Shown: positions 5,615 through 35,096, counted from the stretch's first letter. The stretch is 42,183 nt of DNA from Bacteroidota bacterium (GCA_030706225.1 JAUZOW010000003.1:1-42183); one strand, 5' to 3'. The notes: generated by a model not told the origin, from the letters alone. Program-made: numbers and translations.

Positions 5615-6548
5615 TCACGAACTGCGAATGACATTTCTTCTGATATTCGGCAATTTCCTTGAGAAAGCCAATGCCCCAAGGATACATGAAAAGCCACCAA
5701 TCATTATAGTATAGGGAGCACCGATCAGTTCTGCCAGCTCGCCGGCAAGGATGCTTCCGAAAGGGGCAGTACCCATAAATGCCATGGTATAGAAGCTCAT
5801 AACACGACCTCGCTTATCATTATCCGACAGCGTTTGAAGCATCGTATTGCTGGATGCCATCTGAAGCATCATTCCAAGTCCTGTGATCACTAGTATGCCA
5901 AGAGAGAGATAGAATGACCTGGAAAAGGAAAAGCAAAGGAGCCCTATCCCAAAAACACCTGCTGCAAGCGGAATGATTTTCATCAATCCCAGTACACTTT
6001 TCCGGGATGCAAGATACAGAGCGCCTGCCAATGCACCAAGTCCGGTCGCGCCAATAAGGAAACCGAAGGTATGTGAGCCGCCGTGAAGAACTTCTTTTGC
6101 GAAGACCGGCATTAGTACGGTATAAGGCATTCCCATCAAACTGACCAGGGCAAGGAGAAGGATAATATATTTGAGCGGTACATATCCCAATACATAGGAA
6201 AATCCTTCTTTCATGTCTTTCAATACACTGGTCTCTTTCCGTATTTTGTTCTGTGGAGGGATTCTCATCATCAGAAGAGAAATGATCACGAAAATATAAC
6301 TGATGCCATTAATCAGAAAACAGATTCCTTCCCCGGTGAGGAGCGATCAGAAAAGTAGGGATCTGTCCGGCAAATCCAACGATACCAAGCATCAGCGCAG
6401 ATCCGGTCAAATGATACACCAGCCAGGGAGTTGCAATCCGCTGGATCCAGGTTCCGATCAGAGAAATACCCTGTCCGCCGAAGAAAAGCCTATAGTTTCG
6501 GTACTTTAACGATCGGAAAGTGACCTTAAGGCCAAAATCGGATTTCAT
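5615..6548 (-). pseudogene. MFS transporter disrupted by an internal deletion and frameshift near 6340
   Basis: The N-terminus from ATG 6548 (MKSDFGLKVTFRSLKYRNYRLFFGGQGISLIGTWIQRIATPWLVYHLTGSA...LIAP) joins out of frame to LTGEGICFLINGISY and the C-terminal half. The region carrying MFS motif A and several N-domain helices is missing. Confidence 0.8.
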
Positions 6549-8552: not shown

Positions 8553-8645
8553 ACGATATTAGGGGTTCTTGTTTCCATAACGTAATTTTATATAAAATAA
8601 TCTCACATAGGTATATTGTTTTATCATTTAAACAACGGAAATACA

Positions 8646-11600
8646 ATGAAAATAAGAAATTTTTTATGTATGCTGGCACTGGTTGTGCCGGGATTGTTTT
8701 ATGCTGAATTCGTTCATGCACAATGGAATACAAATACTTACGTCAACCTGATGATTTCTTCCTTATCCGATGATGATCAGCAATCCATAGCTACCACAGA
8801 TGGCAAAACATGGATCGCTTTTTACAGTCAGAATGGTAGTGACTATAATATGAGGGCACAATTGATCGATGCAAACGGAAATAAAATGCTGGGAACGGAT
8901 GGGATGCTTGTAAGCAGCCAGCCTACGGGATCAGCGACCTTTGTTTTTAATGTATGCATTGATGCCTCCAATAACCTGATCATTGCATGCCAGGATGAAC
9001 GTTCGGGAGGAGATCAGGCAGTGTTGTACAAAATTTCCCAATCCGGTACCCATTTATGGAGTTCTTCGGGTGTAATTCTGGGATCCGGTCTTGCTCCTTA
9101 TCCTGCTGTTTTATCGACAGGTGAAGTGGTTGTGGCCTGGAATGAGAGCAACAGCAATACGTTAAATATTCAGAAAATAACTACTTCCGGAACGCTTGCC
9201 TGGTCTACTCCGGTTCAGGTCATGGTCGGAACATCGACAACAACCCGCGGGCAAATTTTTCCCTGTACAGGCGGGAAGTTCAGTATGGTATTCCAGAAAA
9301 GAAGTTATGGGATCTCCACGACACTTTATGCCCAGATGTTTGATAACAACGGAACTTCCCAGTATACTGCAGTTCAGATATGTAATGAAACTACCAGCGG
9401 CGCCCGGTATTATTCAATTACAGGAGAAGGGGATGTTACCTATTTCGGATATTACAGTTCATCAAGCAATCGATTTAACTCCTACATTCAGCGCATTAAT
9501 GCCGACGGGAGTCTTCCCTGGGGAATAAACGGATCTCATTTCAATACAAGTACCAGCTCCGGCGACAATTACCAGGTAGAGACCAATATCGCGCAAACCA
9601 ATGGCTCTTCCTATATATGGGCAGTTGCCACTTTTTGTGATCCGAATCAGACCATTTATGGCGTTTATGTGCAGAAATTTATCAAAACAACCGGAGCACG
9701 GCAATTTACCGATCAGGGGAAAGTGGTTTATGCCGTCAGTGCCAATTGTGACAGGCAGGAAGGAGATATTGCCCTGGTTTCGGATACTCCAATGTTCATG
9801 AGTTATGATGTCTCGGAAAAGATCTATGCAACCCGTTTGGATGCTTCAGGAAATTTCGTCTGGAATCCATTCAGGGTTGAAATCAGTTCGACCACAGCCA
9901 CTGCTTCGGTCCCGAAAATGAGATACGGATTTACTCCCGACGGGCCTAACCGCTGTGCCGGCGTCTGGACGGAAAACAGAGGTTCCGGCTATAGAGGTTA
10001 TGCACAGGGAATTACCATAGGAGGACTTATCGGCCTTCACGTAGCTACCCAGAATAATGTTCCGCCTGTTATTTCTACATCCGGGGGAACGCTACAAATG
10101 GTCGATACAATAATCCCGGCAACCGCCAGCCAGAGCGTTACATGGAGCATTGTTCCCGGAACAGGACAGGCATCTATCAACACGACCGGTTTGGTTACTG
10201 CCATTTCCAACGGCACAGTATGGGCTAAAGCTGTGGCTGTACAGGATGTTACATTGAAAGATTCCCTGATGATCACAATCTCAAATCAGAGTTCCCCTCT
10301 CGTCACAACTACTGCAGCTACCAATATCGGACTTTACACTGCTACAGTCAACGGGACTGTCAACGCCAATAATTTCACCTGTACGGTGACGTTTGACTGG
10401 GGACTTACCACATCATATGGAAATACAGCAACTGCAACCCCACCGACAGTCACCGGAAATACCGTTGTACCGGTGCTTGCAAACCTTTCAGGACTAACAA
10501 CGAATACGGTGTATCATTTCCGGTGTAAGGCCACAAACTCCTACGGGACTACTTACGGACAGGACCTGACTTTTACGACTGCCTGCATTCCGGTGGGCGC
10601 TGCAGGACCGATAACCGGGCCGGCCAGTGTCTGTGCCAACTCGACAGGTAAAGTATATTCTGTCGATTCAGTATCCAACGCGACTTCCTATCTCTGGACA
10701 CTCCCATCCGGAGCATATATTACCAACGGACAAAATACACGGACCATTACCGTTACTTTCGGCGCTGTTTCCGGCAACATTTCTGTCTCCGGATCCAACG
10801 GATGCAATAGTGGCACATCCTCTTCCCTTGCTGTCACAGTGATTCCATCACCTGTACCGACGATAACCGGACCGAATTCCGCTTGCGTAAGCACGAATGC
10901 TGTCACCTATTCTACGGAAGCAGGAATGAACAGCTATGCATGGACAATCTCTTCCGGAGGAACGATCATTTCAGGCACCGGTACCAATCAGATTTCTGTT
11001 CAATGGACGGCGGCAGGATCTCAGTCGCTCACAGTGACCTATGCTTCTCCGGAAGGATGTACACCGTTTGCTCCCGCTTTTCTGGGAGTTACGGTAAATG
11101 CGGTTCCGGATCCGGCCGGAGCTGTTACAGGCCTTTCAACCGTATGTGCGGGACAGCAAGGAGTGGTATATTCCATTGATTCAGTTGCCAATGCGATAAG
11201 CTATGTCTGGAATGTTCCTACCGGAGGAACCATCGCTACCGGACAGGGCACCAGCTCAATTACCGTGAATTATGCTAATACTGCAACATCCGGTAATGTC
11301 ACCGTTTATGCTTCCAATTCCTGCGGCGACGGCCAGTCATCTTCCATGCCGGTTTCAGTTAACCCGATACCTCCTGCACCGGTAATCACTCTGAATTACA
11401 TGACGATACTGTCCAGCAATACTGCCACAGGAAATCAATGGTACAAAGACGGCTCTGCTATAACCGGAGCGACAGGACAGACCTGGAATTGTCAGCTAAC
11501 CGGTAACGGCTGGTACTGGGATGTTGTTTCACTGGAAGGTTGTTCGTCAGATACTTCGAATAATATTTATGTGATTGTCGAAGGAATCGGAAATTACCCG

Positions 11601-11855
11601 GAAAATACTTTCAGTATTTATCCGAATCCAAGTAACGGAAGGTTCTTCATTCTTGGAAACGGAAGTATTTCAGGGAATTTCGATATGTATGTGATAAATT
11701 CAATCGGAGCAAAAGTTTATTCCGCGAAGGATATAAATATCAACCGCCGGACACCGGCCACTATAGATCTGAGTTCTCTCACAACAGGACTCTATTCGGT
11801 CATTCTGCAGAACAACAATATCTGGATTATTAAGAAGGTTCTAATAGAAAAATAG
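8646..11855 (+). CDS. Large T9SS type A cargo protein with Ig-like (Big_2/FN3/PKD-like) domains
   Basis: Signal peptide MKIRNFLCMLALVVPGLFYAEFVHA from ATG 8646, Thr/Ser/Gly-rich Ig-like repeats (GPITGPASVC...WTLPSG-type) and CTD IYPNPSNG...GLYSVIL...KKVLIEK. Confidence 0.88.
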   Translation: MKIRNFLCMLALVVPGLFYAEFVHAQWNTNTYVNLMISSLSDDDQQSIATTDGKTWIAFYSQNGSDYNMRAQLIDANGNKMLGTDGMLVSSQPTGSATFVFNVCIDASNNLIIACQDERSGGDQAVLYKISQSGTHLWSSSGVILGSGLAPYPAVLSTGEVVVAWNESNSNTLNIQKITTSGTLAWSTPVQVMVGTSTTTRGQIFPCTGGKFSMVFQKRSYGISTTLYAQMFDNNGTSQYTAVQICNETTSGARYYSITGEGDVTYFGYYSSSSNRFNSYIQRINADGSLPWGINGSHFNTSTSSGDNYQVETNIAQTNGSSYIWAVATFCDPNQTIYGVYVQKFIKTTGARQFTDQGKVVYAVSANCDRQEGDIALVSDTPMFMSYDVSEKIYATRLDASGNFVWNPFRVEISSTTATASVPKMRYGFTPDGPNRCAGVWTENRGSGYRGYAQGITIGGLIGLHVATQNNVPPVISTSGGTLQMVDTIIPATASQSVTWSIVPGTGQASINTTGLVTAISNGTVWAKAVAVQDVTLKDSLMITISNQSSPLVTTTAATNIGLYTATVNGTVNANNFTCTVTFDWGLTTSYGNTATATPPTVTGNTVVPVLANLSGLTTNTVYHFRCKATNSYGTTYGQDLTFTTACIPVGAAGPITGPASVCANSTGKVYSVDSVSNATSYLWTLPSGAYITNGQNTRTITVTFGAVSGNISVSGSNGCNSGTSSSLAVTVIPSPVPTITGPNSACVSTNAVTYSTEAGMNSYAWTISSGGTIISGTGTNQISVQWTAAGSQSLTVTYASPEGCTPFAPAFLGVTVNAVPDPAGAVTGLSTVCAGQQGVVYSIDSVANAISYVWNVPTGGTIATGQGTSSITVNYANTATSGNVTVYASNSCGDGQSSSMPVSVNPIPPAPVITLNYMTILSSNTATGNQWYKDGSAITGATGQTWNCQLTGNGWYWDVVSLEGCSSDTSNNIYVIVEGIGNYPENTFSIYPNPSNGRFFILGNGSISGNFDMYVINSIGAKVYSAKDININRRTPATIDLSSLTTGLYSVILQNNNIWIIKKVLIEK

Positions 11856-11900
11856 CTGCAGAGATTTCCGGAACAGGAAAATATTGCGATAATCCGGATT

Positions 11901-11975
11901 TTTCCGGCGTTCGTTGCCAGATTTCCGGCGTTTAATAAGTCGCTGATTTTTTTTCAAAACCGGGTTATATTTTTG
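11901..11975 (+). promoter_or_regulatory. LytTR-type direct repeat (TTTCCGGCGTT at 11901 and 11922, 21-bp period) plus -7 element TATTTTTG (11968-11975)
   Basis: Exact 11-bp direct repeat two helical turns apart, the geometry known for LytTR sites, upstream of a consensus TAnnTTTG. Confidence 0.65.
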
Positions 11976-11997
11976 TTCCTGTTTCACAGATTAATAA

Positions 11998-12111
11998 ATT
12001 ATCTCTGCCCTAGTTGCTGCATTATCATCTCTTCCACTGTCCCGGAAAATTAGGGGGGTTCATTAGCTCTATTAAAAGAGGGGAGGAACACCGGGGCAGG
12101 GCAGAGATAAT
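11998..12111 (+). ncRNA. Candidate structured ncRNA, copy 1 (family not recognised)
   Basis: 14-bp closing stem 11998-12011/12098-12111 and inner stem GTCCCGG 12039-12045/CCGGGGC 12091-12097 (U-G wobble favours the + strand). Sequence blocks are shared with 17030-17130; promoter upstream and terminator downstream. Confidence 0.7.
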
Positions 12112-12150
12112 CGATTTAAATTCCTCATTTTCCTTGTTTGTTATTTTGTC

Positions 12151-12183
12151 CCGTCACCAGAAAGGTGACGGAGCTTTTTATTT
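12151..12183 (+). terminator. Rho-independent terminator
   Basis: CCGTCACC-agaaa-GGTGACGG followed by agcTTTTTATTT. Confidence 0.75.
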
Positions 12184-12318
12184 AAACAGAAGAAAATCTG
12201 ATAAATGGGCATTTCTTCTTCCGGAATTTTACACAAAAGTGTAATGTTTCTGTAGACAAATGATACGCTGGCAGGCATTTTCAGGCTGATTAACTTTATC
12301 GCTCCTAAACCTTCTTGA

Positions 12319-13176
12319 ATGGATACCGAAAGTTTAATAGCCCAAATATATTCCCGGAAGCCTGAAAAAAAAACATCCTGCATCATGATTGATGATGAGG
12401 AATCAGCAAAGGAATCCTTTAAGGAAATCATAAGAGAATATTTTACAGATCGGCTTGTACTTCTTGGAACTGCCGGGTCCGTTAAGGATGGAGTAAACCT
12501 GGTCCGACATTACAACCCGGACATTATTTTCCTTAATATTGAACTACCGATAGAATGTGGATTTAAGCTGTTTAATTATTTCCCTGATTGTTCTTTTGAA
12601 GTCATCTTTACCACTTCTTTCAAACATTATACCATTGAAGCCATTAAATACTCTCCGATAGACTACCTTCTGAAACCCATCGATTATTTGGATCTGAAAA
12701 ATGTAATGGACCGGTATGAAAAAAAAATGCGGGATTATTCGGTTCGTCTGAAATTAGAAAAGCTCCTTTCAAACCTTTCTGCCGGAGCTGATATTAATCA
12801 GAAAGTAGCTCTTCCAATAACAGATGGATTTCAGATGGAAAAGATCAATGATATCATGTATTGCGAGGGAGATCTTAACTATTCCAGGATCCACACATCC
12901 GATGAACGAGTGTTCGTCGTTTCCCGGACGCTGAAAGAGATTGAAGGAATGCTGGATACTCCGTATTTCTTCCGTATCCATAAATCGTATCTTATCAACA
13001 TGAATTATGTTAAAATGTATTCCCGAAACGATAGCTATGGCATTTTCCTTGAAAATAATGAATGGCTGCCTGTTTCTACCCGTAGAAAAGATGAGTTTGT
13101 AACGGTTCTGACAAACTGGAGAAATAATATGGTGGGGAGAACGGGTAATGTCATGCATTCCTTGAATCATCATTGA
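12319..13176 (+). CDS. LytTR family response regulator with atypical receiver (phospho-acceptor Asp replaced by Asn)
   Basis: REC motifs IDDE, PDIIFLNIELP, DYLLKP and LytTR motifs SRTLKEIE, FFRIHKSYLINM, LPVSTRRK. Confidence 0.9.
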   Translation: MDTESLIAQIYSRKPEKKTSCIMIDDEESAKESFKEIIREYFTDRLVLLGTAGSVKDGVNLVRHYNPDIIFLNIELPIECGFKLFNYFPDCSFEVIFTTSFKHYTIEAIKYSPIDYLLKPIDYLDLKNVMDRYEKKMRDYSVRLKLEKLLSNLSAGADINQKVALPITDGFQMEKINDIMYCEGDLNYSRIHTSDERVFVVSRTLKEIEGMLDTPYFFRIHKSYLINMNYVKMYSRNDSYGIFLENNEWLPVSTRRKDEFVTVLTNWRNNMVGRTGNVMHSLNHH

Positions 13177-13388
13177 TCCCTGTTCCGGAAAAATTTCTTT
13201 GCCATACGGTTTCCCTGTTTCATGATAAATACCTGAATTTTTCTGTAACGAATCCATACTGAATTGAGGGTATTGAATTATATTTACATCACATTGCCTG
13301 AAATGAAGAAATACGGGTTCCGGTACATATAGGTAAAAAAATCACCCCGGCAGGGGAAACAGTATATTAATCATCAAAAACAAACATC

Positions 13389-14090
13389 ATGAAAAAGTAT
13401 GCTGCAGAGTTTATCGGAACCTTTTGCCTGGTATTTTTTGGCTGTGGTTCTGCAGTGATTGCCGGAATAACCGGTACCGGACCGAGTGGGATCGGATTAT
13501 TGGGCATCGCCATTGCTTTTGGTTTTGCTGTAGTTGCTATGGCATATGCTATCGGCAACATTTCGGGTTGTCATATCAATCCTGCTGTTACAATCGGAGT
13601 CCTTGCAGCCGGGAAAATGAGCTGGAAGGATGCAATCTTCTATATCATCGGCCAATGCCTTGGAGCAATCCTTGGTTCGGCTGTACTTTATCTCATTGTA
13701 TCTGGACGGCCAGGCTTTACAATGACTGAATGGGGACTTGGCTCCAATGGATGGGGACCCGGATATAACGGAGAATTCACGACAGTGAGCGCTTTTGTTA
13801 TTGAAACGGTCATGACCTTTATCTTCATTTTTGTAATTCTTGCCACTACTTCAAAAACCGGGAACACTACAATGGCCGGATTAGCCATTGGGGTCACACT
13901 GATGCTTATTCATCTTGTCACTATCCCGGTAACCGGTACATCCGTAAACCCTGCCCGTAGTCTTGGACCTGCTATCTTTGCCGGTGGAAATGCACTCGCT
14001 CAGCTCTGGCTGTTCATTCTTGCTCCCATCCTTGGCGCCTTAATAGCTGCCCTGGTTTGGAAAACAGGGTTTGAAAACGAAAAGAAATAA
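13389..14090 (+). CDS. aqpZ: Aquaporin Z (MIP family)
   Basis: AEFIGTF, ISGCHINPAVT and GTSVNPARS (two NPA motifs). Confidence 0.92.
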   Translation: MKKYAAEFIGTFCLVFFGCGSAVIAGITGTGPSGIGLLGIAIAFGFAVVAMAYAIGNISGCHINPAVTIGVLAAGKMSWKDAIFYIIGQCLGAILGSAVLYLIVSGRPGFTMTEWGLGSNGWGPGYNGEFTTVSAFVIETVMTFIFIFVILATTSKTGNTTMAGLAIGVTLMLIHLVTIPVTGTSVNPARSLGPAIFAGGNALAQLWLFILAPILGALIAALVWKTGFENEKK

Positions 14091-14111
14091 CCATTAAATG
14101 GGGAAGGACCT

Positions 14112-17030
14112 ATGAAAAAAACTTTTAAAATCATCGGAATTTTCTTTGCTGTTGTTCTCGTATTGTTCCTTTTTTTAGTTCTTTCCCCTTTTATTTTCAG
14201 GGAGAAATTTTCTGAAATAGTTAAAAATACCGCCAATAAATCCCTAAAGACGGAAATGAACTATTCGAAACTGGATATTTCATTTTTACGCCATTTCCCC
14301 AATCTTACCATTTCACTGGAAGATTTCTCCCTGAAATCTTCGGCTCCCTTTTCAAGAGACACCCTCATCAGTGCCCGGGAGATTTCCTTCGGCATTAACC
14401 TGGCCAGCATTTTCCATGGGCCTGTCCGGATCGATAAAGTTTATTTAAACCGTGGACGTATTGTTCTGAAATACAATGAAAAAGGTGCATCGAATTTTGA
14501 TGTGGTCAGATCTTCTTCAGATACTGTAAAAACTGCTCAAACAACTCCTGCCGGGATTGCTAATATAAAAATTGAGCATATTATTGTATCCAAAACCAAC
14601 CTGATCTACAGCGACCCTTACATTCCAATGGAGATTAAAGTGCAGGGCCTCAATTACAGTGGGAAATGCGATATCACGCAGGACATCCTTCACCTGAAAT
14701 CAAGAGTGAGGATTGATTCCATTTCCGTCAGGTATGACCAGTATCAAATTGTCAGGTCAAAGCCGGTCAAGGCTAACCTGACTACCAGTATCAACCTGAA
14801 TTCTTTCGATATGAAATTTGAAAAGAATGATCTTCATATCAAGGATATTCCTTTTGAATTCCGGGGGGAATTTAATTTCCGGAAAGGCGGATACGCGTTT
14901 TCGTTATCCCTTTATTCGACAATGGGGGATGAATATCTGGGAGGGTATCTCTGGCTGATCAGCGAAAAAAACCTTTGGATCTATGTCAAAGCCGGAGCTA
15001 AGGCTAACCTTGAAAACTGGGCGAAGGGATTTGGAATTCGTGATGTTGATCTGAAAGGACTCTTTACCCTGAAAGTAGATGCTGAAGGAGAATATATTAC
15101 CGGACAAAATCCCGAAAGCAGAAAACCAGATACCATCCCTCTGAGCATTCCTAAATTCAGTGTGTCTTCTGATCTGAAGAACGGATATCTTCATTTCAGA
15201 AAAGTTCCGCAGGCAATTTCTAACATTTCCTTCAACCTGACTGCATCCTGTTCCAATAACGATTACCGTACCGTAAACCTGCAATTGGAAAATCTTAAAG
15301 CCCGGTTCCTGAAAAACCAGATAGATGGCTATATCCGGGTTAATGGAATGGATCAGTTGCCTGTGGATGCCAGGGTGACTACTCATCTCGACCTCTCCGA
15401 ATTAAAGCAGGTCGTCCCGCTTGACAGCATGGATGTCAAGGGAATTCTGGATCTGGATCTTTCGGTAAAAGGCAATTATGCTCCGGAGAAGAAGTTGTTT
15501 CCACTTGCCAAGGTGAATATTGGACTTCAGAACGGATCGGTTCTCACAAAATATTACCCCCATCCGGTGGAGGATATCCAGGCTTCGGCAATACTTATCA
15601 ATCAGACAGGGAAGCTGGCAGATACCAAAATCAATCTTGATCCCCTTTCCTTCCGTTTTGAAGGGAATCCATTTGAAATCCATGCAAATCTTTCAAATCC
15701 TGAGAATCTGGATTATGCCGTAACGGCAAATGGATCCATAGATGTCGCAAGTATTTATAAAGTTTTTTCCCGGGAAGGAATGGATTTGAAAGGCTTTATA
15801 GCTGCCGACCTGAACCTGAAAGGACGCCAGAGTGATGCAATGGCCGGCCGGTATGAAAAATTGCACAACACAGGCAAACTGGTACTTCGTGATATTGCTT
15901 TTACTTCTGAATTTCTTCCCAAACCCTTTGTTGTAAAATCGGGGATATTCCGTTTTGAGAACGATAAGATTTGGTTTGACAAGTTTGTAAGCCGGTATGG
16001 AAATTCCGATCTGACCATGAACGGCCATCTGTTCAATGTACTGAATTACCTGCTGGTTCCCAAACAAAAGCTAAAAGGGAGCTTCGACCTGCATTCCGGA
16101 TATCTGGTAGTGGATGAATTTTTAGCTCCGGAAACGACAACATCGACGGCTCCGAAATCTGCCTCGTCATCTGAAGCAAAGAATGCATCTCAGGCTCCGG
16201 AGGGAGTTATTGTAATCCCGGATGATCTGGAGATCGGATTGAAAGCGGATGTTGGGAGGATAAGTTTTCAGAAACTGAATATTAAAGATCTGGATGCAGC
16301 GGTGGAAGTCAGAGATGGGATATTACATCTCAAATCCATGAGTTTCGATGTGATCGGTTGCAAGGTTAATATGGATGCTACTTACGGAAGTATCACTCCG
16401 GTGAGTGCCTATTTTGATTTTCATGTCAAAGCGGAAGATTTTGATATTAAAAAAGCATACGATGAAATTGAACTTTTCCGGAACCTGACCACTGCGGCCG
16501 GGAAATGTGAAGGGACCGTTTCTCTGGATTATTCACTTAAGGGGAAACTGAAAAGTGGGATGGAACCCATTTATCCGTCTCTTGACGGCGGAGGAACCCT
16601 TTCCCTGAAAAAAGTAAAAGTAATGGGCTTAAAGCTTTTTACTCAAATGAGCAAAAACCTGGATCGGGAAAAGATCAATAATCCGGATCTTTCCAAAGTG
16701 GAAATAAAAACCACGATCAAAAATAATGTCATTTCCGTTGAAAAAACAAAATTGAAATTCGCCGGTTTTCGTTTTAAAGTGTCAGGGGAGACTAATTTTA
16801 ACGGAAGCCTGAACCTTAAAGCCCGGTTGGGGTTACCGCCTCTCGGTATTTTCGGGATTCCTATCCGGATCCTTGGGACACAGGATAAGCCAAAATTTAA
16901 ATACGGTCGGGGAAATAATGATGAATCGGTAGAAGAAACGCAATATTCTGATACCATTCCTGCAGATGTACTTCAAAAGATTAAAAATGTTAAAGAAGAA
17001 GATCTGAAAGATGAAACGCCTGAAAAATAA
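14112..17030 (+). CDS. AsmA family / AsmA-like C-terminal region protein
   Basis: N-terminal membrane anchor, FLRHFPNLTISL motif and a long beta-rich body typical of Bacteroidota AsmA-like proteins. Confidence 0.8.
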   Translation: MKKTFKIIGIFFAVVLVLFLFLVLSPFIFREKFSEIVKNTANKSLKTEMNYSKLDISFLRHFPNLTISLEDFSLKSSAPFSRDTLISAREISFGINLASIFHGPVRIDKVYLNRGRIVLKYNEKGASNFDVVRSSSDTVKTAQTTPAGIANIKIEHIIVSKTNLIYSDPYIPMEIKVQGLNYSGKCDITQDILHLKSRVRIDSISVRYDQYQIVRSKPVKANLTTSINLNSFDMKFEKNDLHIKDIPFEFRGEFNFRKGGYAFSLSLYSTMGDEYLGGYLWLISEKNLWIYVKAGAKANLENWAKGFGIRDVDLKGLFTLKVDAEGEYITGQNPESRKPDTIPLSIPKFSVSSDLKNGYLHFRKVPQAISNISFNLTASCSNNDYRTVNLQLENLKARFLKNQIDGYIRVNGMDQLPVDARVTTHLDLSELKQVVPLDSMDVKGILDLDLSVKGNYAPEKKLFPLAKVNIGLQNGSVLTKYYPHPVEDIQASAILINQTGKLADTKINLDPLSFRFEGNPFEIHANLSNPENLDYAVTANGSIDVASIYKVFSREGMDLKGFIAADLNLKGRQSDAMAGRYEKLHNTGKLVLRDIAFTSEFLPKPFVVKSGIFRFENDKIWFDKFVSRYGNSDLTMNGHLFNVLNYLLVPKQKLKGSFDLHSGYLVVDEFLAPETTTSTAPKSASSSEAKNASQAPEGVIVIPDDLEIGLKADVGRISFQKLNIKDLDAAVEVRDGILHLKSMSFDVIGCKVNMDATYGSITPVSAYFDFHVKAEDFDIKKAYDEIELFRNLTTAAGKCEGTVSLDYSLKGKLKSGMEPIYPSLDGGGTLSLKKVKVMGLKLFTQMSKNLDREKINNPDLSKVEIKTTIKNNVISVEKTKLKFAGFRFKVSGETNFNGSLNLKARLGLPPLGIFGIPIRILGTQDKPKFKYGRGNNDESVEETQYSDTIPADVLQKIKNVKEEDLKDETPEK

Positions 17031-17130
17031 ATCTCTGCCTGTCCCGGCTCCCCTCCCCATTTGCAGAACCTGATTGTCTTGTGAAGCCGGGACTTATGGA
17101 AGAGTTGTCAAATTGTTTGAGGCAGAGATT
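17030..17130 (-). ncRNA. Candidate structured ncRNA, copy 2 (homolog of 11998-12111, opposite strand)
   Basis: The reverse complement reads aATCTCTGCCt..CTCTTCCA..GTCCCGG..GGTTC..GGGGAGG..CCGGGAC-aGGCAGAGATt. It has an 11-bp closing stem and an 11-bp inner stem whose U-G pair forms only on the - strand. Confidence 0.68.
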
Positions 17131-17337
17131 CTTTTTTGAAATTTTTAAAAATTATTTTTAAAAATTAAAAGTCGGAAAATATTTTACAAGGATTCTCAAA
17201 TATTCATTATTTCGATGGAAACCATTAAAATTGTTCAATATAGATTCAATTTTCTTTAGGAATTTTGTATTATTGCTTAAAAAGAATTAAAATGTTGGTC
17301 AATTATTATTTTTTTTTAGGAAGAAAATTGATTTGCC

Positions 17338-18120
17338 ATGGGGGAGAAAATATTGAAAGTGATCCTGATCGATGATGAACCTCAGGCGATTTCAGTCCTT
17401 GAACAAATACTACTCAATTATCCTCGTTTAAAAATATGCGGAAAAATTACAGATCCCGGAATAGCGATGTCGGTGATCCGGGATATCAAGCCTGACTTGG
17501 TTTTTCTTGATATTGAAATGCCTGGGAAAGATGGATTTGAGATTCTTAAGGAAATCAATGACCTGGGGTTGAATCCGTGGATTATTTTTGTGACAGCCTT
17601 TGATCAGTTTGCAATTCGTGCTCTCCGTTCGGCAGCCTTTGATTATCTTTTAAAGCCTGTTGACCTCGAGGAACTGGATAATGCTATAGTCAGGCTTTTC
17701 CGGATGCTTAGCGGAAATTCCCCGGAAAATGATGATAATCCCCTTTCTGAAAAAACAAAAAAATTGATCGTTGAAACAACGGGGCACGGGAAAATAAAAA
17801 TTTCAACCGGTAACGGATTTATATTCCTGAGGCCTGAGGATATTTTCTATATTCTTGCAGATTGGAATTATTCCGAAATCTATTATAGCCAGTATCATCA
17901 CGATATTGTGACGACCAATCTGGGATCCATTTGGAAAATGCTCCCCTCCGGGTCATTTTTCCGGATAACCCGGTCTCTCATCGTCAACCTGAAATATCTT
18001 TCCAAAGTCAACCGGAAAAAGAGGCAGATAATAATTAACAAAGACGGAGATGAATGCTCATTTACAATTCCTCTTTTGAATCTTCGCAAGATGGAGCGTT
18101 TTCTGGATTCTAACCATTAA
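17338..18120 (+). CDS. LytTR family response regulator (canonical receiver)
   Basis: IDDE, PDLVFLDIEMP, FVTAFDQFA, DYLLKP and LytTR FFRITRSLIVNL. Confidence 0.92.
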   Translation: MGEKILKVILIDDEPQAISVLEQILLNYPRLKICGKITDPGIAMSVIRDIKPDLVFLDIEMPGKDGFEILKEINDLGLNPWIIFVTAFDQFAIRALRSAAFDYLLKPVDLEELDNAIVRLFRMLSGNSPENDDNPLSEKTKKLIVETTGHGKIKISTGNGFIFLRPEDIFYILADWNYSEIYYSQYHHDIVTTNLGSIWKMLPSGSFFRITRSLIVNLKYLSKVNRKKRQIIINKDGDECSFTIPLLNLRKMERFLDSNH

Positions 18121-24014: not shown

Positions 24015-27000
24015 ATGAATAAAGCATTATTTCTCGTATGCATGATGCTTTTATGCACCGGCATTACCTATAGCCAGAACTCTGATTTAAAACCTAAGGT
24101 TGTAAAACCTGTCTATTTTGATGTATCGCCTCCGTTAAGCGAAATAGCCAGATCTCTCCGTGCAACACCATCAACTTCCTGGAAAGATGGGGTTGTTAAA
24201 AATCATTTCGATCAGCGACAGAATAATAATGCCGTTGTCGTCGATAAGGTTGAACAACAGTCTTATCCTGAATCACCTCTGGTATCAACCGACCAGAATT
24301 TTGACGGAAATACCAATACAGAAGGGTATGTCCCTCCCGATACAGATGGTGATGTCAGCACGAATTATTACTTCCAGGTCGTAAACTGCCATTATTCCAT
24401 TTACAGTAAAACCGGTTCATTACTTCTGGGTCCTGTGGAAAACAGTGCCGTATGGAATGGGATGCCCAATAATTCCAACGATGGCGATGCAGTGGTCATT
24501 TACGACAGCCAGGCTGATCGATGGGTTTTTACCCAGTTTTCATTGCCGAATTATCCTGACGGACCATTTTATCAAATGATAGCCATTTCCCAGACCAATA
24601 ATCCGCTGGGTTCCTGGTACCGTTATGAATATTCGTTCTCAGATATGAACGATTACCCCAAATTTGGAATTTGGCCTGACGGATATTACATGTCGGCCAA
24701 CCGCTTTTCTGCAGGATCGTTTAATTATGCGGGTACAGCAGTTTATGCCTATAACCGGTCCCTGATGCTTATCGGGGATTCAACCGCACAACAGGTTTCC
24801 TTTACTTTATCCTCCTCCGATCCGGCTTTTGGATTTCTTCCGGCAGATTGTGACGGTTCATTTCCTGCTTCCGGTACCCCTGAATATTTTGCTTACATAA
24901 ATAAAAATACATACAATCTAAGGGTTTATCAATTCCATGTCGACTGGACTACAACTTCGAATTCCACTTTCGGGAGCTACCAGGATATTTCTGTTTCTTC
25001 TTTTAATACTACTACTTCACAAAACTATATTCCCCAGCAGGGAACCAGTGTTAAGCTGGATCCGATTGAAGATCGTTTGATGTACCGGATGCAGTACAGA
25101 TCCTTCTCGGATCATAAATCCATGGTCGTTTGTCATAATGTAAATAATACATCCGGCGTTACCGGGGTTCGTTGGTACGAACTCAGAAATACCGGATCGA
25201 CATGGACTAAATACCAGGAAGGAACATATAACCCGGGCGACGGTGCATATCGTTGGATGGGAAGTATTGCCATGGATGCCAACGGTGATATTGCTCTGGG
25301 ATATTCAAAATCAAGTTCCGGTATGTACCCTTCCGTCTATTTTACGGGAAGATTAAGCACGGATGCTCTCAATACAATGACTGTAACCGAAAGTGTGATC
25401 CAGAACGGATCAGGATATCAGAGTTCCAGTTCTCACCGCTGGGGTGATTACAGCGCAATGACCATTGATCCCTCTTCGTCTAATACTTTCTGGTATACTC
25501 AGGAATATATTCAAACTACAGGTCAGGCTAACTGGAAAACCCGTATTGCTTCATTTCATCTGGGAACTGCCGGCGTTCCGCTGTCGGTTACTGCAACGGC
25601 GAATCCTGCAGTCTGTAATCCCGGAGCTGCAGTTCAGCTAAGCACTACGGCTTCCGGAGGAACGGGTTCCTATACCTATTCCTGGTCCTCAAATCCTGCC
25701 GGATTTACTTCCACTTCTCAAAATCCTGTGGCTTATCCGTTAATCAATACAACCTATTCCGTTCTGGTCACCGACGGTGCTTCCTCAGGCACAGGAAGCT
25801 GTTCCGTCACCGTAAACATGAGTGCGACAGCGACAGCTACACCTTCCGTGATCAACCCGGGCAGCAATTCACAACTGAGTGTGTCCGTCCAGGGAGGAAG
25901 CGGTGTTTATACCTATTCCTGGACGTCAATTCCTGCAGGATTTACGTCAACTTCTGCCAATCCGGTGGTTTCACCAGCAATGAATACAAGCTATTATGTG
26001 ACAGTAAGTGATGGCTCTCAAACAGTGAATGCTTCATGTATCGTAACGGTCAACATGACAGTTAACCCTACTGCAACACCTTCTGCGATTAACGTGGGAA
26101 GCAGCTCTCAGCTGAGCGCCAATGTTCTGGGAGGTTCCGGTAACTACACATACTCCTGGACTTCCGTTCCGGCCGGATTCACTTCGACCGGTGCAAGTCC
26201 TGTCGTAACACCTTCCGTAACAACAGTCTATACCGTTGCCGTTAACGATGGTACCCATCTCATGTCGGGTTCCTGCACCGTTTCCGTAAATTTGGCCGTG
26301 AATGCTTCCGCAAACCCATCCTCAATTAATTTGGGAGGAACATCCCAGTTAAGTTCGGTTGCACAGGGAGGGAGCGGAACATTTACTTACTCGTGGGTGT
26401 CCACTCCTGCAGGATTTACATCGAACCAACAGAATCCCGTAGTATCTCCGACAGTAAGCACAATGTACACAGTAACAGCCAACGATGGCTCGCAAAACCA
26501 GAGCGCATCTGCAAATGTCCTGGTCAACATGACGGTAAACGTAACGGCAACGCCTTCCACGATCAATGCCGGACAAAGTTCACAATTAAATACAACGGTC
26601 ACCGGAGGAAGCGGAACCTATACCTATTCCTGGGTATCCAACCCGGCAGGGTTTGCATCCTCCAGCCCCAATCCGGTAGTAACCCCGACGGTCAACACTA
26701 TTTATACGGTTACGGTTAATGACGGTACTTTGAATGCAAACGGCAGCGCAACGGTTAATGTCAATCTTTCATCTTCAGCCAGTGCATCACCTTCTTCCAT
26801 CTGTGCAGGAGATTCGACACAACTTAGCGCAAATGCAATGGGAGGATCTGGTAATTATACCTATAGCTGGACTTCAACACCTTCGGGATTTACTTCAACG
26901 CAGGCAAATCCGGTCGTTACCCCGTCAGCTACGACAACTTATACCGTTCAGGTCATCGACGGTTCCAATACTACCAATAGCATGACGACAGTGTATGTAA

Positions 27001-27554
27001 CGGCTCTTCCGGTGGTGAATGCCGGTTCCGATACCATCGTTTGCAAGGATGTCGTCAAAATGCCTGTATATGGTACCGCTTCGAACCAGTCTTCAGTAAC
27101 CTGGACTACTTCAGGCGACGGAACATTCCAGAATCCGACCTTGCTGAGTACGTATTATTATCCCGGCGCAAATGACCGGAATAGCTCTTCGGTTACTTTA
27201 ACACTGACGGCTCATCCGAATACACCCTGCTCGTCGAACATCTCAGATAACAAAGTAGTAACCATTGATGCATGTACCGGAATCTCTCATGTTTCCGGTA
27301 ATGATTTCGGAGTTTCCGTTCTGCCGAATCCATCCCGGGGGCTCTTTATGGTTTCTATTACCGGCGTGGCATCAGGAACCCTTCACCTGACGGTTTATAA
27401 TGCCAATGGGCAAATGGTTTATTCAGAAGATGTGAATTCAACCGGGAATATTACCGAAAAAAATATGGACCTTGTCTCATTTTCCAAAGGGGTCTACCTG
27501 CTTAAAGTGGAAGCAGGAGATAAAGAAAGGACAGTAAGGGTTGTAATCGATTAA
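24015..27554 (+). CDS. T9SS type A cargo protein with six 79-aa Ig-like repeats
   Basis: Signal peptide, N-terminal domain with PPDTDGDV, DYPKFGIWPDGYY and RWGDYS, repeats GG(T/S)GxYTYSW, and CTD LPNPSRG...GVYLLKV...VRVVID. Confidence 0.88.
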   Translation: MNKALFLVCMMLLCTGITYSQNSDLKPKVVKPVYFDVSPPLSEIARSLRATPSTSWKDGVVKNHFDQRQNNNAVVVDKVEQQSYPESPLVSTDQNFDGNTNTEGYVPPDTDGDVSTNYYFQVVNCHYSIYSKTGSLLLGPVENSAVWNGMPNNSNDGDAVVIYDSQADRWVFTQFSLPNYPDGPFYQMIAISQTNNPLGSWYRYEYSFSDMNDYPKFGIWPDGYYMSANRFSAGSFNYAGTAVYAYNRSLMLIGDSTAQQVSFTLSSSDPAFGFLPADCDGSFPASGTPEYFAYINKNTYNLRVYQFHVDWTTTSNSTFGSYQDISVSSFNTTTSQNYIPQQGTSVKLDPIEDRLMYRMQYRSFSDHKSMVVCHNVNNTSGVTGVRWYELRNTGSTWTKYQEGTYNPGDGAYRWMGSIAMDANGDIALGYSKSSSGMYPSVYFTGRLSTDALNTMTVTESVIQNGSGYQSSSSHRWGDYSAMTIDPSSSNTFWYTQEYIQTTGQANWKTRIASFHLGTAGVPLSVTATANPAVCNPGAAVQLSTTASGGTGSYTYSWSSNPAGFTSTSQNPVAYPLINTTYSVLVTDGASSGTGSCSVTVNMSATATATPSVINPGSNSQLSVSVQGGSGVYTYSWTSIPAGFTSTSANPVVSPAMNTSYYVTVSDGSQTVNASCIVTVNMTVNPTATPSAINVGSSSQLSANVLGGSGNYTYSWTSVPAGFTSTGASPVVTPSVTTVYTVAVNDGTHLMSGSCTVSVNLAVNASANPSSINLGGTSQLSSVAQGGSGTFTYSWVSTPAGFTSNQQNPVVSPTVSTMYTVTANDGSQNQSASANVLVNMTVNVTATPSTINAGQSSQLNTTVTGGSGTYTYSWVSNPAGFASSSPNPVVTPTVNTIYTVTVNDGTLNANGSATVNVNLSSSASASPSSICAGDSTQLSANAMGGSGNYTYSWTSTPSGFTSTQANPVVTPSATTTYTVQVIDGSNTTNSMTTVYVTALPVVNAGSDTIVCKDVVKMPVYGTASNQSSVTWTTSGDGTFQNPTLLSTYYYPGANDRNSSSVTLTLTAHPNTPCSSNISDNKVVTIDACTGISHVSGNDFGVSVLPNPSRGLFMVSITGVASGTLHLTVYNANGQMVYSEDVNSTGNITEKNMDLVSFSKGVYLLKVEAGDKERTVRVVID
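25580..27000 (+). repeat. Six tandem intragenic repeats with exact 237-nt period (boundaries approximate)
   Basis: The GG codons of the GGxGxYTYSW motif fall at 25656, 25893, 26130, 26367, 26604 and 26841. Confidence 0.9.
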
Positions 27555-34334: not shown

Positions 34335-35096
34335 ATGTTATCTTGTGTTCTGATTGATGATGAACAGGATTCATTAATCGCACTGAAAAAGCTTCTCGTA
34401 AATTTTACATATGTTCCGGTCAGAATAGTTGGGGAAGCCACTAACCTTGATAATGGAATCCAACTGATAAAAGACACTCTCCCTGATATTGTCTTTTTAG
34501 ATATTAATATGCCGGGTAAAAACGGTATGGATATCTATAAATACTTTGACAACCCACAATTCAAGGTTGTTTTCATTACAGAATACAGTCAGTTTGCCAT
34601 TGAAGCAATAAAGAAATCAGCTTCAGATTATTTACTGAAACCGGTGAATTTTATCGAGCTTAATGAATCCATAAAAAGAATTTCTGCTCAGTTTAAGTGG
34701 GAACAACACCAGCGGGAAGTGGAAAATAAAGAGAATTTGATTAATGTGCCTGAAATGGAAGGGAAAAACGTGGTTCTTAATGTGGAGCATGGATTTTTAA
34801 TCGAAAATACTAAAAATATTGAGTACTGCTATGCTGACCAGTCCTATTCTGTTATTGTAACCTGTACTGGCAAGAAAATCCTGGTTACAAAACCGCTTAA
34901 ATACCTTGAAAAACTGTTTCCTGCCAATCAATTTTACAGAACACATAAATCCTATCTTGTTAATATCTATTATATTAGAAGGTATGTCAAATCGGATGAG
35001 AATTACCTTCTTCTCAGAAGCGGAATAAAAATTCCTGTTTCGGTAAGAAAGAGTTCAGGAATTGACGGAGAAATCAAAAAGCTTTTTGAAGGTTGA
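34335..35096 (+). CDS. LytTR family response regulator
   Basis: IDDE, PDIVFLDINMP, DYLLKP and LytTR FYRTHKSYLVNI, IPVSVRK. Confidence 0.9.
   Translation: MLSCVLIDDEQDSLIALKKLLVNFTYVPVRIVGEATNLDNGIQLIKDTLPDIVFLDINMPGKNGMDIYKYFDNPQFKVVFITEYSQFAIEAIKKSASDYLLKPVNFIELNESIKRISAQFKWEQHQREVENKENLINVPEMEGKNVVLNVEHGFLIENTKNIEYCYADQSYSVIVTCTGKKILVTKPLKYLEKLFPANQFYRTHKSYLVNIYYIRRYVKSDENYLLLRSGIKIPVSVRKSSGIDGEIKKLFEG

Follow-up and report, generated by a model that had tools for sequence, protein, structure and literature searches.

LytTR-type response regulators are best known from quorum sensing in Gram-positive bacteria, in which RNAIII, a regulatory RNA, is driven by one such regulator, and LytTR domains bind direct repeats and not distant inverted repeats. 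In the excerpted text of PMC4227749, AgrA, the regulator of the agr system of Staphylococcus aureus, binds pairs of direct repeats, of which the proximal one has its center near −60 at P2 and P3, the two divergent promoters, and the P2-P3 region was used as a 214-bp probe. Here, we describe a contig of 42,183 nt (contig C165, hereafter the window; GCA_030706225.1, JAUZOW010000003.1:1-42183) from the draft genome of a Bacteroidota bacterium (2.66 Mb, 241 contigs), in which an element of about 105 bases is present in two copies in opposite orientations. Copy 1 lies upstream of an orphan LytTR response regulator gene (LytTR-1), and copy 2 lies between the stop codon of an AsmA-family gene (asmA) and a second orphan LytTR gene (LytTR-2), from which it diverges. 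We tentatively read copy 2 as the second of two copies of a structured element that is restricted to its lineage, and as a candidate small RNA gene, and give this reading, made from sequence analysis, a probability of about 0.4.

The relationship between the two copies was established with covariance models. A model derived from copy 1 alone, with the helices P1 and P2 as structure (R1), found copy 2 on the minus strand with a score of 28.9 bits and no match on the plus strand at that place, and a model made from both copies (R2) gave 116.4 bits on the minus strand versus 18.8 bits on the plus strand. The minus-strand placement proposed in the first-pass annotation of this DNA was thus borne out. 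In the structural alignment, 66 of 122 columns were identical, and the identity was concentrated in six blocks (AUCUCUGCC, (A)NCUCUUCCA, GUCCCGG, GGGGAGG, CCGGG, and GCAGAGAU), where 45 of 47 positions agreed, compared with 21 of 75 (28%) elsewhere. The combined block pattern occurred only at the two copies in the whole genome, and CTCTTCCA...GGGGAGG had no match in dinucleotide shuffles of the window. A BLAST search of copy 2 against its own genome returned only words of 13-16 nt, copy 1 being too diverged. The element is very probably under selection and not a chance resemblance, and conservation restricted to the blocks points to selection on the blocks themselves and not to a recent duplication. 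A recent segmental duplication was also rejected on the basis of the surrounding sequence, LytTR-1 and LytTR-2 being only 30% identical (69/230) and the spacers failing to align. A small open reading frame (ORF) was rejected too, as gaps of 3, 1, 4, 2, and 1 columns between the copies break any frame, and the boxes and spacing of integron attC sites do not appear to fit the element.

Both copies adopt a common predicted fold, in which a closing helix, P1 (AUCUCUGCC/GGCAGAGAU), is followed by an inner helix, P2 (GUCCCGG/CCGGGNC), stacked on the 3' strand of P1. The order of the parts is kept in both copies: P1, about 18 nt, the invariant CUCUUCCA in the 5' joining strand, 3-4 nt, P2 and its loop, with the invariant GGGGAGG at the 3' end of the loop, 4 nt, and finally the 3' strands of P2 and then P1. 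In copy 2, P1 comprises 11 Watson-Crick pairs and one G-U pair in the two-copy alignment, the strand joining P1 to P2 is 26 nt long and ends in CUCUUCCAUAA, and the P2 loop of about 33 nt ends in GGGGAGGGG. Pairing was kept in 98.1% of 53 cells of the alignment; three pairs, located at the outer ends of P1 and P2, were changed on both sides, and one further pair changed from U-G to U-A. The two G-U pairs found in P1 and P2 both fall on the proposed strand, which is a weak hint in favor of that strand. The minus strand of copy 2 folded at −39.7 kcal/mol (z −4.7, none of 200 shuffles being as stable) and its plus strand at −37.7 kcal/mol (z −4.1), while the plus strand of copy 1 folded at −39.8 kcal/mol (z −2.2, with 6 of 200 shuffles as stable). 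Since this asymmetric layout was kept while the orientation relative to the neighboring LytTR gene was flipped, the element's own orientation appears to matter and its orientation to the gene does not, which fits an independent gene.

The signals flanking copy 1 carry most of the case for a transcribed unit. The motif TAnnTTTG was found 201 times at −40 to −21 of start codons in this genome (1496 ORFs of at least 200 aa), versus about 12 expected, and is a real promoter signal here. The box TATTTTTG is the only exact −7 box in the interval 11856-12318. Upstream of it lie two perfect direct repeats of TTTCCGGCGTT, the genome containing no other such clean pair, and the midpoint of the repeat nearer the promoter is about 54 nt before the inferred transcription start; their layout is typical of LytTR binding sites, and they may constitute such a site. 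Downstream of copy 1, a hairpin at 12151-12171 (8 pairs, 6 of them G-C) is followed by UUUUUAUUU, while no U run follows P1 itself. The opposite strand of copy 1 has neither an upstream box nor a U run. The sense strand is thus most likely the one that reads CUCUUCCA...GGGGAGG, which would place copy 2 on the minus strand. Separately, TGGCAGGCATTTTCA at 12273-12287 (plus strand), 32 nt before the LytTR-1 start, loosely resembles what we take to be the −24/−12 consensus of sigma-54 promoters, and sigma-54 (rpoN) is encoded in the genome, on contig C213.

On its minus strand, copy 2 has its 3' end at the asmA stop codon, with a UUAUUUUU tail. Positions 17040-17031 read AGGCAGAGAU, so that the whole 3' end is AGGCAGAGAU-UUAUUUUUC, and the tail and the last two P1 pairs are complementary to the end of asmA (its final codons and stop). 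The first-pass annotation had noted the end at the asmA stop codon and the U-rich tail. Its estimate of an AT-rich spacer of about 207 bp up to the LytTR gene at 17338 also agreed with our measurements (206-209 nt, 19% GC, within an asmA-LytTR-2 gap of 307 nt). Beyond copy 2 on the minus strand, the sequence is only antisense to the 3' end of asmA; copy 2 thus lacks a downstream gene and cannot serve as a 5' leader, again as had been claimed. A U-rich run follows P1 of copy 2 on both strands, and copy 2 was absent from a scan for terminator hairpins, its stem enclosing about 80 nt. Two further sequences adjoin this copy. The AT-only palindrome AATTTTTAAAAATT occurs twice in tandem at 17140-17167, next to the 5' end of copy 2, and might act there, in the divergent spacer, as an UP-like element or binding site. 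Just past the tail, in the last asmA codons, TTTCAGGCGTT at 17015-17025 (minus strand) differs by one mismatch from the repeat word of copy 1; about 130 such one-mismatch sites exist in the genome, and this one may be due to chance.

The genome encodes eight LytTR genes, five of which have a homologue of LytS-type histidine kinases directly upstream. The three orphans are all located in the window (12319-13176, 17338-18120, and 34335-35096), with no LytS-type kinase homologue in the window, and two of the three carry the element in their upstream intergenic gap. The association with LytTR genes inside this genome is striking. The copies lie 5 kb apart and therefore are not independent samples. 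The earlier proposal that linkage to LytTR genes is retained while orientation is not thus holds for this genome, both copies being upstream of orphan LytTR genes, but only as a pair of non-independent observations.

According to the small RNA reading, each copy would be transcribed on the strand that reads CUCUUCCA...GGGGAGG. The RNA of copy 1 would start at the TAnnTTTG promoter behind the LytTR-type repeats and stop at the hairpin terminator, with a length of about 200 nt. For copy 2, transcription would begin in the AT-rich spacer, which is shared with LytTR-2 running in the opposite direction, and end at the P1 helix of this copy and the U tail on the asmA stop codon, yielding an RNA of about 110-125 nt, and the same helix probably terminates asmA on the other strand. 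Because copy 2 lacks a downstream gene, the RNA would have its effect on something other than its own transcript, whether through pairing or through a protein bound at the two invariant blocks, and the orphan LytTR regulators may have it as an output or be modulated by it. Such a layout would resemble that of agr, in which P2 and P3 are divergent and RNAIII is driven by a LytTR regulator. We favored this reading on account of the predicted strand of copy 1, which carries an exact promoter box, repeats of the LytTR style, and a terminator. The trans-acting RNA that the first-pass annotation had proposed for copy 2 is partly supported: a minus-strand copy in an asymmetric unit without a downstream gene is real, but the plus-strand helix followed by UCUUUUUUG looks like an asmA terminator. 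From one genome and two sequences, a trans-acting, co-inherited small RNA is plausible.

Several results weigh against this reading. No exact TAnnTTTG was found upstream of copy 2 on the minus strand, as had been reported; the spacer contains TAATTTTT variants on this strand at 17167-17160 and 17154-17147, and one-mismatch −7 boxes on the plus strand at 17268-17275 and 17307-17314. No LytTR-type repeats of at least 9 bp with at most one mismatch and a spacing of 17-24 bp were detected upstream of copy 2, in a search that dropped words with at least 8 A/T. The covariation was not significant, the observed values being reached in 58 of 500 shuffles of an alignment of two sequences that had been fitted to the structure. 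The helix cores are the same in sequence and do not covary, so that they are silent for or against pairing, and recognition as DNA fits them equally well. A pseudoknot between CUCUUCC and GGGGAGG (6 pairs, 2 of them G-U) is possible but was no better than in shuffled loops (for copy 1, 879 of 1000 shuffles were at least as good, and for copy 2, 136 of 1000), and was not counted as supported. The proposal that CUCUUCCA and GGGGAGG serve as targeting seeds found no backing: their complements at start codons numbered 6 versus 5.8 expected and 5 versus 6.3, respectively, in a comparison of little power. The end of the element closest to the LytTR gene (GGCAGAGAU on the plus strand at both loci, P1 being palindromic) lies 211 nt from the ATG for copy 1 and 209 nt for copy 2. 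The U run of copy 2 is better on the plus than on the minus strand, and copy 2 may simply be the asmA terminator. Finally, no homologue was found in any genome or collection searched; the genome was the only one of its genus among them, and these collections may leave out records of this genome or of a very near one.

The searches for relatives were made at several taxonomic levels. None of the 89 other family genomes contained the exact block pattern, and the best R1 match in them had an E value of 0.109; across 150 genomes of the order, R2 gave no match at E ≤0.1. Its one match in 150 class genomes was a 43-nt hairpin (E 0.0125), which was taken as spurious. With laxer filters, the best R2 match in 39 relatives had an E value of 0.07; four of the weak matches in this set were inspected and all lacked the blocks, and two of them resembled coding sequence by eye. 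One of these weak matches, in the genome itself at C213:10919-11022 (minus strand; 21.2 bits, genome-wide E 0.085), was without the other blocks and was considered spurious; it sits between rpoN and a kinase-LytTR operon, in the gap from which the two diverge, and its helix is partly P1-like (CUCUGU/ACAGAG). The block pattern was found at 50 loci in metagenome contigs, all with 52-73% GC and without a closing helix on inspection of the flanks, and these were attributed to chance; it was found at no locus in viral contigs. A second pattern (P1, CUCUUCCA, UCCCGG) was found at 30 loci of many phyla in genome contigs, none of which R2 matched at the pattern site, the sole R2 match among them (E 0.078) being elsewhere in its locus (L100). 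Scans with filters off found no element beside 26 loci encoding relatives of LytTR-2 (35-54% identity; best E 0.13, simple hairpins) or beside 24 loci encoding relatives of LytTR-1 (37-58% identity; best E 0.4). No neighboring genes were common to these loci and the window, and synteny was thus of no help.

Among the other explanations, a site acting at the DNA level, independently of its orientation and at a fixed distance upstream of orphan LytTR genes, where a protein would read ATCTCTGCC/GGCAGAGAT and GTCCCGG/CCGGGAC or an extruded cruciform and affect the LytTR promoters, is unlikely. The conservation of the helix cores in sequence, beyond what pairing asks for, would suit such a site, as would the finding of the element only beside LytTR genes in this genome. 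The best argument for it is the position of GGCAGAGAT, on the plus strand at both loci, 211 and 209 nt before the LytTR ATG, which hints at a fixed position at the DNA level; the match was, however, noticed after the fact and is forced for copy 2 by its abutting asmA. The halves of the outer repeat are 99 versus 91 bp apart from center to center, so that helical phase is not kept, and neither of the inner parts, CTCTTCCA and GGGGAGG, mirrors the other, an asymmetry found in both copies. Distant inverted repeats are also at odds with the direct repeats bound by LytTR domains (general knowledge, and the excerpted text of PMC4227749). We consider it quite unlikely that copy 2 is only the intrinsic terminator or 3' untranslated region (UTR) structure of asmA on the plus strand, with copy 1 a similar structure in the gap after the gene encoding a type IX secretion system (T9SS)/PKD protein, either one ending transcripts or insulating them with no role in trans. 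Plus-strand P1 does begin a single base beyond the asmA stop and runs into UCUUUUUUG, with the stable plus-strand fold and the better U run given above, and each copy is downstream of a plus-strand gene. A terminator has, however, no need for invariant unpaired blocks or for an inner helix of fixed sequence, the asymmetric layout was kept although opposite orientations are used, and P1 of copy 1 lacks a U run, this copy having a separate terminator. Termination of asmA is in any case compatible with a small RNA, as the helix could end both transcripts.

The arrangement of promoter, element, terminator, and gene at copy 1 could also be that of a cis-acting leader (riboswitch or attenuator) of LytTR-1, copy 2 being an inverted duplicate which, if active, would be antisense to or convergent with the asmA 3' end. 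The single exact −7 box precedes copy 1 and the terminator lies between the element and LytTR-1; in addition, by eye, 12141-12152 resembles the 5' strand of P1, 10 of its 12 positions could pair with the P1 3' strand, and it shares 2 nt with the terminator. The shared stretch is nevertheless only 2 nt, copy 2 keeps all the blocks intact with no gene downstream, the element was not conserved in the other taxa searched, and it matched no Rfam family, which makes a leader improbable. We give equally little credence to a decayed mobile or repeated element of the miniature inverted-repeat transposable element (MITE) or repetitive extragenic palindromic (REP) type, or to the inverted ends of a 5-kb segment (12108-17030), with no present function. 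Palindromic ends, two inverted copies 5 kb apart, and restriction to one genome among those searched speak for such an origin; on the other side, there are only two copies with 28% identity outside the blocks, and decay would not spare six blocks perfectly. Moreover, no target-site duplication was seen in the flanks, and Pfam revealed no transposase or recombinase among the 28 annotated ORFs of at least 150 aa in the window.

The coordinates of the two copies, their parts, and the adjacent features are listed in Table 1.

Table 1. Features of the two element copies and their surroundings in the window, ordered by position. P1 and P2: closing and inner helices.
Feature	Position	Strand	Remarks
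T9SS/PKD gene	8616-11855	+	463-nt gap to LytTR-1 contains copy 1
Two perfect 11-bp direct repeats TTTCCGGCGTT	11901-11932	+	21-bp period; about 35 nt upstream of the TATTTTTG box
Exact TAnnTTTG −7 box TATTTTTG	11968-11975	+	23 nt before copy 1 P1
Copy 1	11996-12116	+	in the 463-nt gap between the T9SS/PKD gene and LytTR-1
Copy 1 P1	11998-12009 with 12100-12111	+	fold and model
Copy 1 block CUCUUCCA	12029-12036	+	identical in copy 2
Copy 1 P2	12037-12045 with 12091-12099	+	fold and model
Copy 1 block GGGGAGG	12080-12086	+	identical in copy 2
Terminator-like hairpin CCGUCACC/GGUGACGG, then UUUUUAUUU	12151-12183	+	about 40 nt after copy 1
LytTR-1, orphan response regulator	12319-13176	+	downstream of copy 1; Pfam scan
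AsmA-family gene	14112-17030	+	PF05170, E 2.3e-17; stop TAA 17028-17030 abuts copy 2
Copy 2 U-rich tail UUAUUUUUC	17030-17022	-	complement of asmA codons GAA AAA TAA
Copy 2, whole covariance-model match	17023-17134	-	R1 28.9 bits, E 1.8e-5; R2 116.4 bits
Copy 2 P1 3' strand AGGCAGAGAUUU	17029-17040	-	last two bases complement the asmA stop codon
Copy 2 P2 3' strand AGCCGGGAC	17049-17041	-	P1 3' strand directly after
Copy 2 block GGGGAGG	17058-17052	-	in P2 loop; conserved in copy 1
Copy 2 P2 5' strand GUCCCGGCU	17093-17085	-	pairs with AGCCGGGAC
Copy 2 conserved block CUCUUCCA	17104-17097	-	unpaired in nested fold; identical in copy 1
Copy 2 P1 5' strand (G)AAUCUCUGCCU	17120-17131 (AAUCUCUGCCU, 17130-17120)	-	pairs with 17029-17040
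AT-rich spacer between element and LytTR-2	17129-17337		209 nt, 19% GC; 206-208 nt from helix ends
Terminator-like run UCUUUUUUGAAAUUUUU	17130-17146	+	directly after P1 helix; possible asmA end
LytTR-2, orphan response regulator	17338-18120	+	Response_reg and LytTR domains

With respect to the other genes of the window, the Pfam scan identified T9SS-sorted proteins, an SprB-repeat protein, and CHU_C/PKD proteins, from which we read the organism as one of the Bacteroidota type. A plus-strand gene lies upstream of each copy of the element, and a convergent HlyD/FtsX/FtsX/ABC set is found nearby on the minus strand. The gene encoding the SprB-repeat T9SS-sorted protein (24015-27554, 1179 aa) contains six tandem 237-nt repeats at 25656-26943, each of 79 aa and with 62-78% identity to the first. 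An ORF of the major facilitator superfamily at 5615-6289 (minus strand, 224 aa) covers just positions 194-399 of the 524-position MFS_3 profile and may be a truncated gene or have a misplaced start.

When compared with described RNA families, the whole window had no match to Rfam 15 at the gathering score. With E values up to 10, six matches were obtained around copy 2, all far below gathering and to models of eukaryotic small nucleolar or long non-coding RNAs or to enterobacterial STnc370, and ten around copy 1, likewise all below gathering. Nothing relevant on LytTR together with a small RNA of Bacteroidetes or with a covarying RNA motif was found in full-text searches of the literature. Riboswitches and attenuators are located in a 5' UTR and run in the direction of their gene, which is the case for copy 1 and not for copy 2, and have a structure that covaries across taxa, for which the 89 family, 150 order, and 150 class genomes provided no homologue. 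MITE and REP sequences occur in many whole-length copies with target-site duplications, as opposed to two copies with different flanks here. Inverted repeats like those of an invertible promoter segment (phase variation of the Bacteroidales type) are present, but no exact TAnnTTTG lies inside either element on either strand, and, as stated above, no recombinase was found among the 28 annotated ORFs. Like bidirectional intrinsic terminators, copy 2 has P1 followed by a U-rich run on both strands and is located at the end of asmA; unlike them, it has a helix whose enclosed stretch of about 80 nt contains a second helix and invariant blocks that are unpaired, a convergent gene is lacking, and copy 1 has no U runs.

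The comparison with agr gave a mixed picture. The element has no match in sequence or structure to RNAIII, and the putative RNA of about 110-200 nt would be shorter than RNAIII, which is about 500 nt long. In contrast to agr, no kinase or peptide genes lie beside LytTR-1 and LytTR-2, copy 1 runs in the same direction as LytTR-1, copy 2 has no recognizable direct repeats, and the host is of the Bacteroidota type with a T9SS and not a Firmicute. Similarities are found in the divergence of copy 2 and LytTR-2 across a spacer of 206-209 nt, which is like the P2/P3 region of S. aureus in geometry only, and possibly in the promoter-proximal repeat of copy 1, centered about 54 nt before the inferred start compared with near −60 for AgrA (PMC4227749, excerpted text). 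Beyond this, the element might represent a new lineage-specific class of structured RNA partnering orphan LytTR regulators, in which a LytTR-activated promoter would drive a P1/P2 small RNA with two invariant blocks, serving as the effector or feedback arm of kinase-less regulators and as a non-Firmicute counterpart, in function, of agr RNAIII. We regard this extension as speculative and unlikely; if true, it would provide an independent case of the regulator-plus-RNA design in a very different phylum and a handle on the role of orphan LytTR regulators without a kinase. At present, the locus is of value as a clearly bounded candidate for a small RNA of an ordinary kind, unannotated and seen in one genome. 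Despite the lack of a match to any Rfam 15 family, which sets it apart from described small RNAs, it resembles the lineage-specific small RNAs of Bacteroidota in being intergenic and non-coding, with inter-copy indels that are not multiples of three, and, at copy 1, in that a single strand carries an exact TAnnTTTG box along with a stable, structured body and a hairpin terminator.

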